Origin: a virus
Virus record (IMG/VR): IMGVR_UViG_3300025418_000011
DNA: 64,000 nucleotides
Reading direction: 5' to 3' (one strand)
A model generated the notes under the pieces. The model made no database searches and was not told where the DNA came from. It saw nothing but the letters and a program-made list of their open reading frames with translations. Positions 3,405 to 21,630 of this stretch are shown here, one piece after another (the stretch's first letter is position 1; each line of letters begins with the position of its first letter). The position numbers and the translations under genes are program-made.

Positions 3405-4805
3405 ATGGCTATCAATACTCTTAATTTTTTAAACAAAAACCAATTTAGGAGATACCCTCTTAAATCAGGATCTTCATTGACTTCTATAGACGGTAAAAAA
3501 ATAACAAATGAATTATTTGTAGGGGCGAGTATAACAACCACAATCGATCGTAAAAATATATTTATAAAGCAAGTATATGTGAATGGCTCGAATATAAGGG
3601 TTACTTTAGCTTGCCAGCTATCTAATTCTTTTTTTGAGACATTAGGTGTGTTTTACGGAACAATAACTAGTGACTTCACAAGCATTCCTTTAACAGAAAC
3701 AATGAGATTCACTAGCGGCAGCTTAATAATAGGCACAGCTGACGCAGTTGCAAGCATGGCCGGTACTTATACTTTTGATACAGAAGCCCTGCAATTAGAA
3801 GAATCTACTATTTTTTATTACACTCCGCCAGGTGTTACTAGTGTACAAAACAATGGAGCACAATTAAGGGGAAATGTTAATTTTGGAGTGCTTACCAATA
3901 TAATTAAATCCAGACCAAATAATAATCAAATTAATTTTGGTGTGATAGACACCGTGAGTGTAACAAGCCTGGCCGACAAATCTTCTATTTTTAATAATTG
4001 TAATACTCCTGTAATAAGACATATAGATGGGGCCACACCATTCTACCAAGCTTCAAATTCCGTAGACTCCTCAGGTAACAGTAATTATGTTCCGGAGTTG
4101 CAGGGAAATCTATTTATGGTAGGTATTTCACCAATCACATTTAAAAACGAACAAAATTTAGGAGCTTCAGGAACTTTAGAATATTTAGGAGGCTTAAAAA
4201 CTGAAACATTCTCTGCCTCTACAGGTGCACCAATTACTTTGAATACTCTATGTAACGCTAGAAATTCAGTGTTGCCTCCAACCGCGCCAATTTATATAAA
4301 CTCAGGGCACCTACAGGATCCTACTACCCCAACAGGAACCACAGGTGCCCTTGGCTTGGCTAGTTATTATACAAAATCAAATTACAAACCTGCAAATTTT
4401 TATTCTGCAGTAGATCCAGAATTTGTATGGTGGCCGCAATTTTTTACATACAGTAGCATAACTCCAAATAGCCCGATTGTTGCAAACCAAGGAACAACAG
4501 GAAGTGTTGGATATGCGGCTATCTCCGGTGTTCCATCACCCAAGTATACTCTGACTGTTGTATATGTAAACAAAGGTACAGCAGATTTAACTATATCGTT
4601 ATTTAAAAATGGAGTTAGCCTAAATGGCTTTTACGGAGTAGTTGTAAAAGCCAATAGCTCTGTAACTGTTAGAAGCACCAGCGATAGTAACTATACGTAT
4701 CATGATACATTTATAGGCATTGCTAACGGAGATCATTTTACAGTATCATTTGATTCTGTTTCTGGTGGAGTGTCTACACTGCAGCCATATATATACTATA
4801 GATAA
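3405..4805 (+). CDS. Putative virion structural protein (baseplate/tail), paralog 1 of 3
   Basis: 466-aa beta-rich S/T/G/N-rich ORF; N-terminal motif LNFLNKNQFRRYPL resembles the next two genes. Confidence 0.5.
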   Translation: MAINTLNFLNKNQFRRYPLKSGSSLTSIDGKKITNELFVGASITTTIDRKNIFIKQVYVNGSNIRVTLACQLSNSFFETLGVFYGTITSDFTSIPLTETMRFTSGSLIIGTADAVASMAGTYTFDTEALQLEESTIFYYTPPGVTSVQNNGAQLRGNVNFGVLTNIIKSRPNNNQINFGVIDTVSVTSLADKSSIFNNCNTPVIRHIDGATPFYQASNSVDSSGNSNYVPELQGNLFMVGISPITFKNEQNLGASGTLEYLGGLKTETFSASTGAPITLNTLCNARNSVLPPTAPIYINSGHLQDPTTPTGTTGALGLASYYTKSNYKPANFYSAVDPEFVWWPQFFTYSSITPNSPIVANQGTTGSVGYAAISGVPSPKYTLTVVYVNKGTADLTISLFKNGVSLNGFYGVVVKANSSVTVRSTSDSNYTYHDTFIGIANGDHFTVSFDSVSGGVSTLQPYIYYR

Positions 4806-8404: not shown

Positions 8405-8443
8405 CCCCCCCATAATATAGCTTAACTTTTCAGGTATAATAAA

Positions 8444-8471
8444 TTGATAACAAGATTTGTTAGGCTATATT
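8444..8471 (+). promoter_or_regulatory. Sigma70-like promoter for the ncRNA island
   Basis: TTGATA-N16-TATATT; predicted start about 8478-8481 matches the 5' end of hairpin RNA A. A 13-bp inverted repeat (8414-8426 / 8459-8471) overlaps the -10. Confidence 0.45.
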
Positions 8472-8480
8472 TTTTAGTTT

Positions 8481-8608
8481 ATAGATTCGGATCTGTGTGT
8501 CCGCTAATTAGCTAAAGGTCCACGGCTGATATTGTGTGTACAATGGCGCTCTGCTCGGCCGAGCACCGCATAGAGACACATAGCAAACGGGCACACAGAT
8601 CCATCTAT
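8481..8608 (+). ncRNA. Candidate rod-shaped ncRNA A (unassigned, possibly 6S-like)
   Basis: GGATCTGTGTGTCCG (8489-8503) pairs with CGGGCACACAGATCC (8588-8602), 15 bp with one G-U; ATAGAT/ATCTAT outer pair; apical TGCTC-GGCC-GAGCA; no ORF. Confidence 0.6.
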
Positions 8609-8622
8609 TTTTGTAATGCTAC

Positions 8623-9015
8623 TTGCGATTAGTCTGGACTATAACCAGAGTCGTAAACCGTCTCAAGTCGGGAAGAGGTGGAATCATGGCCGCCTGAAAA
8701 GCAGAGAGCAAAAAATGGCGCAGCAAGGAATAAACTGACGAGTTTATTGAAAGGGTTTCCAACTTATTGGTGGAAACTGGTGTGGCACAACCCCCACACT
8801 AAATGACAATCTCACGGATACTGCAACCACCGTGAACAAATCATTCGCCTCACCACGAGGTTTGCAGACATCGTGGTAGGAACGCGCCTAAACCTTTTAA
8901 AATAATTCTGTGAGTAGAGTATGGGTAATTCCCATAACACGCTCTGTAAAGATAAACAACCTAATGCTGGGTGTTATTTTTACAGATCACGGTGATGATC
9001 ACACAGAGTTATTTT
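8623..9015 (+). ncRNA. Candidate large multi-junction ncRNA B (unassigned)
   Basis: About 390 nt ORF-free and relatively GC-rich; at least 10 helices traced by hand, with G-U wobbles consistent with the + strand. Confidence 0.6.
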
Positions 9016-9053
9016 TTAACCCCTGAAACCAAACAACCAACCAAAACCAAAAA

Positions 9054-9827
9054 GTGAAAAACGTACGCAGGATAGATTGGTCAGCACGTAAAGAAAAACG
9101 AGACAACGACATCTACCTAAACAAAGAGCTAAAGAAGCTGTTGCGTTATAGAGAAGATATCAACATACTCTCTCTGCCTGGTGAAAAATGGCTATGGGAG
9201 CGGCAGTTAATTCAAAATTTCCCTGAAAATAAGTTCAATATTGTTGGTGTTGAATCTGATCCTTATGTGAATGAATCTTCAAGAAATTTTCTAAAGCTCA
9301 ATCACAAGAATAAAAGAAACCAGATTGATCTACTAGACCAAAAAACATCATGGGAAGATGTAGTCACCAGGAAATTTAATTCCAGCTTGTTTGATAGCTC
9401 AACAGCTGAATTTGATATAATCTACGGTGATTTCATGGGTACCTTTAACAGAAATATAATAGAGTATATCTCACACATGCTAGAGGATAAAAAAATGATA
9501 AAGCCCTTGGGTAATATTATTTTTACATTCCTGCTTGGACGTGGATTGAGGGATATCAGAGAAGAAACCCTAGAGATAGGCAGAGCATCAAAATATTCAG
9601 ATTTACTTTATTTTGATGATGACATGCTGTGGAACAGATACAGCAGTAATACCAAATCTGATGAAGTTCATCCTTATGCTATCGGCATTATGGAAACTAT
9701 CTTACAGCTTGGTAAGAAATTCGGAAAAGTTCTACTCCCCTCAAAACCACATATATATTACAGTCCGGGAAGAGATGAAAACCATCTTGTTCCAGAGGGC
9801 AGCTTTTGCTTTACACTGATAAAGTAA
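9054..9827 (+). CDS. Class I SAM-dependent methyltransferase-like protein
   Basis: ILSLPG (motif I-like), IVGVESD (acidic end of beta2), FDIIYGDFMG (motif IV-like). Confidence 0.55.
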   Translation: MKNVRRIDWSARKEKRDNDIYLNKELKKLLRYREDINILSLPGEKWLWERQLIQNFPENKFNIVGVESDPYVNESSRNFLKLNHKNKRNQIDLLDQKTSWEDVVTRKFNSSLFDSSTAEFDIIYGDFMGTFNRNIIEYISHMLEDKKMIKPLGNIIFTFLLGRGLRDIREETLEIGRASKYSDLLYFDDDMLWNRYSSNTKSDEVHPYAIGIMETILQLGKKFGKVLLPSKPHIYYSPGRDENHLVPEGSFCFTLIK

Positions 9828-9850
9828 TTGAATAAGCTTTTGTAACATTT

Positions 9851-10285
9851 GGGGGCGTAATTGGAAATCGACTCCAGGAGTTGATATCAGCCTACATGCA
9901 GAGGATCTCAGTTGGCCTCTATAATCATCTGGGAAAAAAATAAAAGCAAACTCTAACGAGATGCTTGCTCCTAGCCTCGCTGAGGCGGATGCCATTCTTG
10001 CAAAGTATGGCTACGCTGACAGCGAGCTTCTCGCTGCCTAACCGCAGCGGCTTGAAGCCGCTAGTAGTAAAACGCTCTCTGGACGCCCGATGCCGGAGAG
10101 ATACAAAAGGGTACCTCAATTATCTTGTGAGGGTATAATTTAGATACGACTCAATTCGCGTTAAGTTGAAGATCCATCTGTATCCGCTCAGCGTACTGGT
10201 ACAGATGAAATAGGCTGAGCTAAGCATGTAAACGGTTGTTAGATATTTCTGGAACACACGGGTTCGAATCCCGTCGCCTCCACCA
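9851..10285 (+). ncRNA. ssrA: tmRNA; tag ANSNEMLAPSLAEADAILAKYGYADSELLAA* (9946-10041)
   Basis: 5' GGGGGCG pairs with CGCCTCC-A-CCA including G3-U70; T-arm GGGTTCGAATCCC; ATAAAA-GCA resume context; tag ends LLAA-stop. Confidence 0.95.
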
Positions 10286-10288
10286 ATC

Positions 10289-10502
10289 TACTGATGAAAA
10301 TCAGTACTCCTCCTGGGGATAATCGTATCCCTTGCTCATAGTCTAACGGTTACAAAGTGACTATCTGTGACTACTCAGACAAACGAGACCGCGGTTCCCA
10401 GTACGTGTAATCCCTCTATCATTAACAGGCATGTTGGATAGAAACGCAATTAGTCATTGCGGGGGAAAGAAGCTAACCGCGGGTTGAGGAAAAATTTCCC
10501 CC
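10289..10502 (+). ncRNA. Candidate structured ncRNA C directly after tmRNA
   Basis: Hairpins TACTGAT-GAAA-ATCAGTA, GGGATA-ATCG-TATCCC, ATAGTC/GACTAT, TCTATC/GATAGA, CGCAAT/ATTGCG and GGGGAAA/TTTCCCC; potential pseudoknot CCGCGGTT (10389-96) with AACCGCGG (10475-82). Confidence 0.5.
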
Positions 10503-10548
10503 CAACAATAGATATAAAAACCACTGTGAGAAGCAGGGCATTGCGCTT

Positions 10549-10867
10549 TGTGTATATGTGGAAATCCCGAAGATAACATATTAATCCTCTCAGGGGCTAC
10601 AGGTGATGCTCTCTGAGGAAAAAGGAAGTTAACCATCTGGGAGCTCTATTGTCTGGGGACTTTTGTTTTGGTAATGATCTTTTATCGGTTAGATCATGTG
10701 TGTTGGAACCGTCTGTGGCCGCGAGATGTATATCTTTCCCGCCCAAAAAAATAACAGATTGAGCATACAACAGAGTCCAAATCTCAAAACATGCTCGGTA
10801 ATAATAAACCAACAACCAATATTTTCCTGGTTTGCCACACATACACAGGAGCACTGGTCCGGCAGTG
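10549..10867 (+). ncRNA. Candidate ~320-nt multi-domain ncRNA D
   Basis: Long-range helix TGTGTATATGTGG (10549-61) / CCACACATACACA (10835-47), 12 of 13 paired, enclosing several hairpins. Confidence 0.55.
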
Positions 10868-10929
10868 ACTAACACAATCCGGAAATTTTTTATTTGATTA
10901 TTGCCCTCTATGCGGATAATTATTTATTT

Positions 10930-11012
10930 GAGCCCAGGACAACCAAAAACCCTCTGGTATTAGGCGGGAAATCTGATGGAAAGCAGAAATCTATAAGCCC
11001 TGTCCTGGGCTC
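10930..11012 (+). ncRNA. Candidate 3-way junction RNA E / 3' terminator element
   Basis: Perfect 12-bp GAGCCCAGGACA/TGTCCTGGGCTC enclosing ACCA/TGGT and GGC..TCTG/CAGA..GCC arms; followed by TTATTTTTT. Confidence 0.5.
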
Positions 11013-11040
11013 TTATTTTTTAACTATTCAAAAAACCCAT

Positions 11041-11069
11041 TTGACACACCAAAAAACTAGGTGTAGGGT
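11041..11069 (+). promoter_or_regulatory. Sigma70-like promoter, near-leaderless transcript
   Basis: TTGACA-N17-TAGGGT, ATG 9 nt downstream at 11078. Confidence 0.45.
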
Positions 11070-11077
11070 TATCCACC

Positions 11078-11377
11078 ATGACAAACACACAACACACAAA
11101 AGAAAGCATTCTAGAAGAAGCCGTGCGGGTTACTTCGGGTGATCGTAGAAGAGATTATGATCATCCAGAGCCCAACCATAAACGTATAGCTACTATGTGG
11201 AACGCTTATCTCAGTATCAGAAAAGATCCATTGGCAGAGATATCACCATATGATGCAGCTATGCTAATGGTTCTATTGAAAATCGCCAGAGATGTGTATA
11301 CATCAAAGCGTGACAATTTTGTAGATGCTGCGGGATATATCCGCTGCGCTGCAATAATTGCCGGTTACGAAGAATAA
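11078..11377 (+). CDS. DUF6378-like phage protein
   Basis: ILEEA..VTSGDR..DY.HP...RIA.MWNAYL...LKIAR....DNFVDAAGY pattern. Confidence 0.75.
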   Translation: MTNTQHTKESILEEAVRVTSGDRRRDYDHPEPNHKRIATMWNAYLSIRKDPLAEISPYDAAMLMVLLKIARDVYTSKRDNFVDAAGYIRCAAIIAGYEE

Positions 11378-11392
11378 AAATAAAACAAACAT

Positions 11393-11536
11393 ATGGAAAT
11401 AACACAAGCAGGAATCGGTTTCGGAACAGCGCTGGCTATCACCATTTCATGGAGCCTTCATCAAAGTATTCTATGGGCGATTGTTCATGGTATCTTGGGA
11501 TGGTTCTATGTAATCTATTTCGCAATCACCCGATAA
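11393..11536 (+). CDS. Small 47-aa membrane protein (MEITQAGIGFGTALAITISWSLHQSILWAIVHGILGWFYVIYFAITR)
   Basis: Manual translation, below ORF-track cutoff; two hydrophobic helices; resembles a widespread small bacterial membrane family. Confidence 0.7.
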   Translation: MEITQAGIGFGTALAITISWSLHQSILWAIVHGILGWFYVIYFAITR

Positions 11537-11550
11537 AATCCCCCCAAAAT

Positions 11551-11691
11551 TGACCTGACTGTATGGAAGAGAACATACATTTGTTACGCAGTAAGTTGTC
11601 TGCAGCCACCCTGTCCCTCTGGAAATTCCGGGGGAGAGCTTCGAAGCCCAGGGACACCAAAACAGTGAAGGGTTAGCGTCCTTCCAGGTCA
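11551..11691 (+). ncRNA. Candidate ~140-nt multi-branch ncRNA F
   Basis: Closing TGACCTG/CAGGTCA; arms TGTATG/CATACA, GCAG/CTGC, TGTCCCT/AGGGACA (branched) and GAAGG/CCTTC; intergenic. Confidence 0.55.
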
Positions 11692-11706
11692 TTAAATTTA
11701 AAAAAT

Positions 11707-11907
11707 ATGATATTCTCAAATAAACTACTTAAAACATGCAAATCGTACGACAAGTCCAAGTTCTTGTCGCGTAGACCCAAGGGTATGAAAGAAGCCGACT
11801 GGAAGGAGTATGTTGCGGACTTCAAGCTAAACAAGCTTATTGTTCTAGGCAATGCTCCAAAAGCCCCCGCAAGAAAAGAATCCAGACCTCAGGAGGATAA
11901 GGAATAA
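11707..11907 (+). CDS. Hypothetical basic protein
   Basis: 66-aa ORF abutting the next gene. Confidence 0.5.
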   Translation: MIFSNKLLKTCKSYDKSKFLSRRPKGMKEADWKEYVADFKLNKLIVLGNAPKAPARKESRPQEDKE

Positions 11908-11908
11908 T

Positions 11909-12532
11909 ATGGGCATGTTCGATACTGTATTTGTAGAGAAAGCTCTGCCCCTCTCTCCTGAGGTTAAAAAAGCGTTCAAGGGTAAAGACTGGAAAAAGAT
12001 CGACTTTCAAACGAAAGATTTAGATCTAGCCATGGCTTATTATTATCTTAAAGCTAACGGTAACTTGTACTTAGAGAAAATAGAGGGCAGTTACGAACCC
12101 CTCGCTGAAGAAGAAATAAAGAAAAATAAGAAAAATAAATTCTATCTTAATTATAAGTTCATTGAAACAGGTCGTGAATTAGTTAAAACAAATATTTGCG
12201 GAACTGTACAAATATACGCTAGTGAGTACGATAACGCCGGTAACGAGTGGTGGGTTGAATTTGAGCTGGTTCTACACAATGGAAAGCTTAAAAAGGCCAA
12301 ACAAATCAAGGCTGAGCTTGTGCATACCGCTGAAGAAATAGAACAACAGCGGGTAGATTTCGAGCAGCGCCATGAAAAGGTATACAATCATCCCTGGAAT
12401 AAGACCAAGAGAGTACTAAATAAGATTACATTTAATTATTGGAACTCATCTTGGAGAGGGGTTGCCAGAGGAGTAAGATTCCTTGGTTCCAGACTGGACA
12501 ATCTTGGAATGTGGATATATAGATATATGTAA
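11909..12532 (+). CDS. Conserved phage hypothetical protein (MGMFD-type N-terminus)
   Basis: ATG at 11909 gives MGMFDTV, an N-terminus typical of a common phage family. Confidence 0.65.
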   Translation: MGMFDTVFVEKALPLSPEVKKAFKGKDWKKIDFQTKDLDLAMAYYYLKANGNLYLEKIEGSYEPLAEEEIKKNKKNKFYLNYKFIETGRELVKTNICGTVQIYASEYDNAGNEWWVEFELVLHNGKLKKAKQIKAELVHTAEEIEQQRVDFEQRHEKVYNHPWNKTKRVLNKITFNYWNSSWRGVARGVRFLGSRLDNLGMWIYRYM

Positions 12533-12538
12533 TGAATT

Positions 12539-12719
12539 TTGACGGCAGCATCATAAATACGACCGGACCATCCCTTCCTCAATCTTCACGGTTGATAGGT
12601 ATACCGGTGTGGTCGGGTAGAAGAGCTCTAAACGGTATGGCACCCTATAAAGCGCTGAGTAACTTCTTTAACCATGGTAACCCGGATGTTGAAAAGATTC
12701 TGCAGGATCGTTCCGTCAA
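12539..12719 (+). ncRNA. Candidate ~180-nt multi-branch ncRNA G just upstream of tRNA-Pro
   Basis: TTGACGG/CCGTCAA closing helix; CAGCATC/GATGTTG; CGACC/GGTCG; GGGT/ACCC; AGAAG/CTTCT; GATTC-TGCA-GGATC. Confidence 0.55.
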
Positions 12720-12726
12720 TGTTTTA

Positions 12727-12801
12727 CGGGGTGTAGCTCAGCTTGGCTAGAGCGCTTGCTTTGGGAGCAAGATGTCGTCGGTTCGAATCCGGCCACCCCG
12801 A
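12727..12801 (+). tRNA. tRNA-Pro (TGG), CCA not encoded
   Basis: Full cloverleaf CGGGGTG/CACCCCG; anticodon arm CTTGC-TTTGGGA-GCAAG; T loop TTCGAAT. Confidence 0.95.
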
Positions 12802-12810
12802 TAGATTTAT

Positions 12811-12881
12811 TACCCTTTGGTGTAACGGTAGCACAAGAGATTTTGGCTCTCTTTGTCATGGTTCGAATCCATGAGGGGTAG
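12811..12881 (+). tRNA. tRNA-Gln (TTG), CCA not encoded
   Basis: TACCCTT/AGGGGTA; AGAGA-TTTTGGC-TCTCT; CATGG-TTCGAAT-CCATG. Confidence 0.93.
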
Positions 12882-12968
12882 TTTTGTTATGTCGCTCATA
12901 ACTGAAGGGCATAAGCAGGAGTATGGCCAACGAGTATAAAAATAAACCCTGCACAACTTATCACACAA

Positions 12969-16785: not shown

Positions 16786-16828
16786 ACCTCCCACGCCTCT
16801 CAACGATGCGCACCAAGGGAGGTTTTTT
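16786..16828 (+). terminator. Intrinsic terminator
   Basis: ACCTCCC/GGGAGGT stem followed by TTTTTT. Confidence 0.6.
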
Positions 16829-21432: not shown

Positions 21433-21630
21433 ATGAGTAAAACAGCAATTTATTATAAGGTCAGAGACAGGCTTAAACAATATGTATCTCCGGTAATAAA
21501 GCCGCTATTAGATAAATATTATACAGGCAGTAGCAAGTCTGCTCAGCGCAAGGATTTGGCGGATAGTTATGCCCAACAGGTGCAACCCCCTCCTCAGCCG
21601 CAGGCACCACCTAGGCCAAAGAAAGTATAA
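21433..21630 (+). CDS. Hypothetical basic protein
   Basis: 65-aa ORF. Confidence 0.55.
   Translation: MSKTAIYYKVRDRLKQYVSPVIKPLLDKYYTGSSKSAQRKDLADSYAQQVQPPPQPQAPPRPKKV

Follow-up and report, generated by a model that had tools for sequence, protein, structure and literature searches.

Conserved structured RNA modules and a predicted twister ribozyme around the tmRNA and tRNA genes of an uncultured phage

GOLLD and ROOL are heavily structured RNAs of phages and prophages that lie near transfer RNA (tRNA) islands, and their function is unknown (bioRxiv 10.1101/2024.12.08.627333; PMC5737381). In phage T4, two small structured RNAs of unknown function, rnaC and rnaD (species 1 and 2), lie by the tRNA cluster and on the same strand (PMC9697503). 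Twister and pistol ribozymes, in turn, are common in the neighbourhood of phage genes and also lie close to other ribozymes, and they have been proposed to process polycistronic transcripts (PMC4604425, PMC6765202); the biological role of the phage-associated copies is still open (PMC6765202). Here we show that a 64,000-nucleotide (nt) stretch of the IMG/VR virus record IMGVR_UViG_3300025418_000011 (182,120 bp, about 93% complete), referred to below as the window, carries an RNA island around a transfer-messenger RNA (tmRNA) gene and tRNA genes. Its four intergenic gaps (A to D) are conserved, non-coding RNA under tmRNA-like constraint, and they hold (i) several conserved structured RNAs outside the described families, of which modules C and D are constrained like tmRNA, (ii) a small covarying pseudoknot common to other phage RNA loci, and (iii) a predicted twister ribozyme. 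The phage is uncultured, and the sequencing runs that contain the window in full are freshwater metagenomes.

The island thus extends the list of RNAs accompanying phage tRNA genes, none of which has a known function. It shares with GOLLD and ROOL its location beside tRNA genes, and with the T4 RNAs its small structured elements by a tRNA cluster on the same strand. Whereas GOLLD and ROOL each have one conserved fold of 600-800 nt, the island strings together modules of 110-200 nt, each of which varies on its own (Table 1), and whereas the T4 locus has neither a ribozyme nor a tmRNA, the island has both; its modules also lack the tRNA-like T arm of rnaC. Homology to rnaC or rnaD was rejected for module D, the only one compared, on the score of its covariance model (R1), which with filters off reached at best 7.4 bits in the T4 tRNA region, outside both RNAs. 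Searches of A1, A3/A4, B1-B4, C and D against Rfam 15 (4,227 models) returned only chance-level microRNA and snoRNA matches (E above 1), and neither GOLLD (RF01998) nor ROOL (RF03087) matched any gap, searched singly, at the gathering score or at E up to 10. An original prediction, made from the sequence of the window, had proposed a set of unassigned structured RNAs here and likened them to GOLLD and ROOL. Most of the elements indeed match no Rfam family, but one is a twister, with a Pistol ribozyme in relatives; the likeness to GOLLD and ROOL survives as an analogy of place and size, without a model match, and we would take the location beside tRNA genes as context for that likeness, not as a mark of membership. 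We consider it fairly probable that the island is a plus-strand string of separately folding modules whose long precursors are cut into pieces.

The island is shared with five related IMG/VR contigs (six contigs counting the window), representing two further lineages. A search of 5.8 billion proteins with the protein encoded by the 257-amino-acid (aa) open reading frame (ORF) yielded just two clusters of homologues. The 59%-identical cluster led to IMG/VR contigs L042, L043 and L044, which share synteny with the window throughout the island, with a DNA identity of about 70-75%, and the other relative found by this protein (P0001) is 96%-identical; used as the sole query, the protein returned no IMG/VR locus. 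The third lineage, G009 (loci L095 and L106), was found by a later motif scan. Nothing resembling the region except tRNAs was found among the cultured phages of INPHARED. More distant relatives reached through the 207-aa protein (41-46% aa identity; L002-L006, L033-L041) carry a tmRNA beside that gene, and in these no module homologue was detected by blastn, nhmmer or the models R1 and R3. A 20-nt invariant of gap B is present in three close relatives only.

Identities and codon-position mismatches were computed between the window and L043. All ORFs compared were 56-73% identical with a strong excess of third-position mismatches; in the 257-aa ORF, for example (64.7% identity), mismatches at positions 1, 2 and 3 numbered 82, 50 and 136. 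The tmRNA was 78.5% identical and flat across positions, as were gap B (74%; 60, 63 and 63 mismatches), gap C (86%) and gap D (82%). The middle of gap A (8614-8791) could not be aligned with L043 (40%). The flat mismatch pattern together with the high identity indicates that the gaps do not code for protein and that selection acts on them as strongly as on the tmRNA.

The original prediction had looked to folding beyond that of dinucleotide shuffles and to covariation with related phages, and both were found. Gap A folds better than its dinucleotide shuffles on either strand (z of -7.9 on plus and -5.3 on minus), and so does gap B (-3.8 and -6.1). Covariation was counted as compensatory pairs in the RNAalifold consensus and compared with column-shuffled alignments. 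Gap B has 31 such pairs against a shuffled mean of 9.7 (maximum 15), gap D 8 against 1.2 (5), A1 7 against 1.8 (5), A3/A4 11 against 5.0 (8) and gap C 3 against 0.7 (2), an excess of approximately 2-6 times; the tmRNA, as a positive control, has 15 against 5.0 (8). The coding controls had no such excess (21 against 17.1 in the 257-aa ORF and 16 against 17.9 in the 207-aa ORF). L095, from the third lineage, contributes further compensations that are independent, bringing D to 10 and C to 6. The long-range closing helices that had been proposed are real and covarying in A1, B1, B2, B4, C and D, and loops are invariant while stems covary. The preference for the plus strand, which had been ascribed to G-U pairs, is clear for C and D and small for B1-B4. 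The twister, the tmRNA, the tRNAs and both U-tract tails described below all lie on the plus strand, which carries every gene from 5.6 to 14.3 kb.

That the gaps are DNA-level elements (an origin, recombination or packaging sites, mobile palindromic inserts) or unrecognised small protein genes appears highly improbable. Such elements would fit modules that appear and vanish as discrete indels, and gaps A and B that fold better than shuffles on both strands; they fit poorly with a plus-strand consensus for D that is 20 kcal/mol better than the minus-strand one through G-U pairs, with a twister model that matches a single strand, and with stems that covary around constant loops. As had been claimed, no long ORF is present in gaps A-D (translation table 11, TAG=Q or table 4), although the ORF-free sequence, put at about 1.5 kb, sums to 1,805 nt. 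Recoded stop codons were rejected because no ORFs appear with them (TAG=Q, table 4), and small ORFs because there is no codon periodicity and indels are not multiples of three; a 72-aa ORF across gap D is disrupted by a 14-nt indel in relatives. Paralogues of the modules elsewhere in the genome were likewise considered and rejected. The claim that the gaps are richer in guanine and cytosine (GC) than their flanks holds, if modestly, at 42-47% against 36-42% in neighbouring ORFs and 40% in the window.

Table 1. Features of the island in the order of the plus strand; pairs and compensatory pairs refer to the consensus with relatives, and consensus energies are from RNAalifold.
Feature	Position	Strand	Description	Support
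33-aa ORF	to 8404	+	precedes gap A
Gap A	8405-9053	+
Promoter-like box	8428-8470	+	TATAAT at 8435-8440	nearly invariant in window, L042-L044 and L106
A1	8489-8603	+	15-bp closing helix (inverted repeat I2) around two inner hairpins	37 pairs, 7 compensatory (with L042 and L044)
Predicted twister	8610-8712	+	type P1 with P3 and P5	Rfam RF03160; model R2
A3/A4	8802-9020	+	hairpins 8802-8845 and 8848-8880; branched domain 8900-9014; U-tract tail	66% identity to relatives; 61 pairs, 11 compensatory
257-aa ORF	9054-9827	+
tmRNA	9851-10285	+	anchors the island	ARAGORN; Rfam RF00023, 98.9 bits
Gap B	10286-11077	+
B1	10307-10491	+	185 nt, multi-branched, 7-bp closing helix	59 pairs, 13 compensatory; energy -59.4 (+), -55.3 (-)
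B2	10501-10658	+	158 nt, 14-bp closing helix	48 pairs, 7 compensatory; energy -44.4 (+), -38.2 (-)
B3	10687-10893	+	ends in H-type pseudoknot 10852-10883 and U-tract 10886-10891	pseudoknot invariant
B4	10925-11024	+	12-bp helix around branched loop (10925-11011), then U-tract; terminator-like	inverted repeat I13 at 100%; terminator scan match; 5 compensatory
DUF6378 ORF	11078-11377	+
47-aa ORF	11393-11536	+	membrane-like
Gap C	11537-11706	+
C	11551-11691	+	141 nt, multi-branched, 16 nt upstream of conserved 66-aa ORF start	43 pairs, 6 compensatory (with L095 added)
66-aa ORF		+
207-aa ORF	11909-12532	+
Gap D	12533-12726	+
D	12537-12721	+	185 nt, multi-branched, between 207-aa gene and first tRNA	62 pairs, 10 compensatory, including long-range closing helix (with L095 added); energy -55.3 (+), -35.4 (-) kcal/mol
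tRNA-Pro, tRNA-Gln	12727-12882	+	adjoin gap D	ARAGORN; Rfam
Element E	12892-12958	+	short, conserved	77-86% identity to L042, L043 and L106, at shifted positions

Following A1, positions 8610-8712 are predicted from sequence to form a twister self-cleaving ribozyme of a phage subtype, with the cut between U8614 and A8615. Searched against gap A alone (661 nt), RF03160 (clan CL00120) aligned over its full model (1-68) at 29.6 bits (E 2.8e-4), a match that larger Rfam searches missed. A second model (R2), built from 29 distinct and independent phage twisters, none from the window, scored the window at 51.2 bits on one strand only (E 1.8e-12, E-values of the models built here, R1-R3, being rough). 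The stems stand in type-P1 order (P1 8610-8613/8709-8712, P2 8617-8620/8700-8703, P4 8658-8659/8670-8671), and the features, read against PMC6154101, include the U-A cleavage dinucleotide within UAA (8614-8616), an AAA strand, a long P3, a P4 with a 10-nt loop, a P5 hairpin, and a GAGAG strand with the conserved G after P2 (8704-8708). Both pseudoknots are present with compensated changes, T1 (A8621-U8668, C8622-G8667) from consensus GC:GC to AC:GU and T2 (8662-8664 with 8706-8708) from CCC:GGG to CUC:GAG. The copy in the window differs from most twisters in its large P3 and in its P5, which is rare and reported in 1% of twisters (PMC6154101). A pattern for the subtype found 40 IMG/VR loci (L054-L093), 39 of which have a matching 5' half and yield the 29 distinct sequences; compensated pseudoknots, U at two consensus C positions of the P4 loop and the 3' strand GAGAG characterize them. 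The Rfam threshold for twister-P1 accordingly misses a whole phage subtype (40 loci). Many copies of the subtype share a conserved upstream leader. Of the distant relatives, L002 and L035 likewise have R2 matches to twister next to the 207-aa gene. A weak twister-P1 match of 14 bits in an intergenic stretch of the window (21493-21570, plus strand), not found by R2, is probably due to chance.

In L043, the stretch that cannot be aligned to the window contains a full Pistol ribozyme (RF02679), which scored 61.5 bits in a permissive Rfam search against a gathering score of 34.5. Pistol occupies the same slot at 60-61 bits in L042-L044 and in the third lineage, with matches in genomes G006, G007, G008 and G009, and the genome of the window (G000) has no Pistol match at E up to 10. 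On the 5' side of the slot are the promoter-like box and A1, and on its 3' side are A3/A4 and the tmRNA; twister fills it in one lineage and Pistol in two. The two agree in slot and in the expected kind of cut, but their folds are unrelated, and the cleavage site is near the 3' end of the motif in Pistol and at the 5' end in twister. Two unrelated ribozyme classes at one position in syntenic RNA loci are natural evidence that selection keeps the cut itself, and the locus offers a concrete substrate and product, namely A1 and the RNA after it. Because of the twister, and of Pistol in relatives, the release that had been attributed to tRNA and tmRNA processing probably involves ribozyme self-cleavage as well.

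The remainder of gap A is a mixture of modules and signals. Judged by its sequence, the box with TATAAT at 8435-8440 is the probable start of the first transcript of the island; its motif is not enriched within the window. A hairpin at 8414-8471 was rejected: relatives do not preserve the fold, and this promoter box is the better reading of the stretch. L043 has lost A1, and an extra hairpin precedes A1 in the relatives. A3/A4 is the weakest of the modules, and its tail (9009-9020) is a 12-mer identical to the tail of B4 (11013-11024). The proposal of new phage RNA motifs therefore stands for conserved, structured and non-coding sequence, while part of gap A is better described as a promoter-like box and terminator-like tails.

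In gap B, the longest invariant is a 38-nt block holding the pseudoknot of B3, identical in the window and its relatives. The pseudoknot consists of a 5-bp hairpin with a 6-nt loop; beyond a conserved 10-nt linker, five downstream bases pair with this loop, and a U-tract comes next. The pseudoknot recurs in G009 (L095) and in four further phage contigs (L084, L094, L096, L097); stem 2 has three sequences that are always complementary, with three of the five pairs covarying, and its cells are paired in 100% of cases, against 25-42% with the partner slid. Two matches of the pattern in GTDB genomes, both without stem 2, are due to chance. In L084 and L094 the pseudoknot closely follows a promoter-like site, with a twister or a tRNA-like gene coming soon after it, and our best guess is that it is a transcript-end or transcription-related element. 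A long-range pairing between B3 and B4 (repeat I17) was rejected, since it is not kept in relatives. The relatives also have a 150-nt module after the tmRNA that is absent from the window, and in G009 it is fused to the pseudoknot.

It is improbable, in our estimate, that either gap B, with about 720 nt, or gap A, with about 530 nt, encodes a single giant and ornate RNA comparable in size to GOLLD and ROOL, and perhaps multimeric. Gap B is conserved continuously from 10307 to 11024 with few indels and has one clear terminator only, at its end; GOLLD and ROOL, too, sit beside phage tRNA or tmRNA genes (bioRxiv 10.1101/2024.12.08.627333), and a 6-nt palindrome in an invariant loop of D could make self-contacts. 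Gap A, however, is split by the ribozyme and can lose A1, as in L043, an internal U-tract follows the pseudoknot at 10886, and small-region Rfam searches with E up to 10 gave no GOLLD or ROOL match. G009, moreover, is without the 257-aa ORF and B1/B2 and keeps the promoter box, Pistol, the tmRNA, the pseudoknot, C and D. Since relatives lose or exchange modules one by one and every module has a closing helix of its own, the island consists of separate modules rather than one giant RNA.

Module C, at 86% identity, stands above any flanking gene, and its consensus z is -7.3 on the plus strand against -3.6 on the minus strand. The model of C (R3) scored 193.0 bits on the window and 197.6 bits on L106, scores that are not independent, as both sequences are in its alignment (L106 8827-8999 lies within L095:2660-2840, a row of that alignment); it gave no further match in 555 kb. 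R1, in comparison, finds the copy of D in L106, which was outside its training set, at 197.1 bits.

The positions of C and D bear on whether the RNAs are cis parts of the transcripts of their neighbours (leaders, trailers, processing guides or stabilisers for the tmRNA, the tRNAs and small mRNAs), which we regard as rather unlikely. C is found upstream of the 66-aa gene in all lineages, D always precedes the tRNA array, and B directly follows the tmRNA; a 5'-OH left on the downstream RNA by the twister cut would be a plausible stability device, and the proposed ribozyme processing of polycistronic transcripts (PMC6765202) would suit such a role. However, C and D are better conserved (86% and 82%) than the genes they would serve (56-73%), their multi-branched folds of 43-62 pairs with invariant loops go beyond the needs of a stabiliser hairpin, and C has no visible expression platform (no terminator, no masking of the start codon). 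Some role in trans seems to us more probable than service in cis to the neighbours.

For the reading as a string of modules cut from precursors, the steps would be as follows. Long plus-strand precursors would start at the promoter-like box near 8435 and at later starts. Twister cleavage would free A1 with a 2',3'-cyclic phosphate, setting its 3' end 11 nt past its closing helix, and would leave a 5'-OH on the downstream RNA. At the tmRNA and the tRNAs, cleavage by host RNase P and 3' trimming would produce the ends of B and of D, whose 3' limit would be fixed by processing of tRNA-Pro and tRNA-Gln, and termination may occur at the two terminator-like branched hairpins with identical U-tract tails. 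The stable RNAs so made (A1, B1-B4, C and D) might serve in the takeover of translation or RNA metabolism by the phage, a guess whose single ground is the fixed company that the modules keep with the tmRNA and tRNAs.

Several points weigh against this reading. Promoter use, co-transcription, cleavage, RNA stability and function are all things we infer, and no specific function is indicated for the modules. A1 and B1/B2 are dispensable in some relatives, and the twister falls below the gathering score of RF03160 (29.6 against 67.2 bits). Energy z-scores against column shuffles are unspecific, the coding control in the 257-aa ORF having reached -4.9, which is why the case rests on the excess of compensatory pairs; three lineages carry C and D and two carry B1-B4, so that covarying pairs represent one or two events each. 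The strand is weakly resolved for B1-B4, and for A1 and A3/A4 the claimed plus-strand preference did not emerge from the folding energies. Finally, with C 16 nt from an ORF start and D abutting a tRNA gene, either could act in cis. A more ambitious version is offered tentatively, as a possibility: an operon punctuated by ribozymes and comprising at least six new RNA families (A1, B1, B2, the B3 pseudoknot, C and D), with twister and pistol as interchangeable cassettes at one fixed processing slot and released RNAs that act in trans during infection, for instance by forming RNA-only assemblies or by modulating ribosome rescue and translation together with the tmRNA of the phage.

Among the neighbouring genes, only the 207-aa gene keeps its place next to the tmRNA, the tRNAs or a twister in every relative, whether close or remote. 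An AlphaFold model of its protein (pLDDT 78) has a beta sheet and a long helical hairpin and gave no fold match in the PDB. The 47-aa ORF is present in the window only; in every relative, module C directly follows the DUF6378 gene. The stretches 9020-9053, 10800-10820 and 11025-11077, after which ORFs start, are C/A-rich unstructured leaders without a Shine-Dalgarno sequence, which may be a clue to translation initiation in the host.

The tmRNA gene is uninterrupted in the window and in L043. In L042 (9690-10480) and L044 (11110-11890), an insertion of approximately 770 nt with a reverse-strand ORF splits its T-loop, and ARAGORN missed both tmRNAs for this reason; the insertion is probably an intron with a homing endonuclease. 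In L002, a group I intron (4299-4531; Rfam, 85.5 bits) overlaps the last 37 nt or so of the tmRNA match (3910-4335) and runs about 200 nt past it. Further tRNAs identified by ARAGORN and Rfam are Val and Tyr, and the placement of element E among the tRNAs differs between relatives. A second tRNA cluster (Ile, Leu, Met, Glu, Ser, Arg and Lys) lies outside the window, at 10-15 kb of the oriented genome. An abiF RNA motif (RF03085, 50 bits) is located at 16787-16823 of the window, and some 20 nt upstream of it is a box one base off the promoter-like box at 8433-8443.

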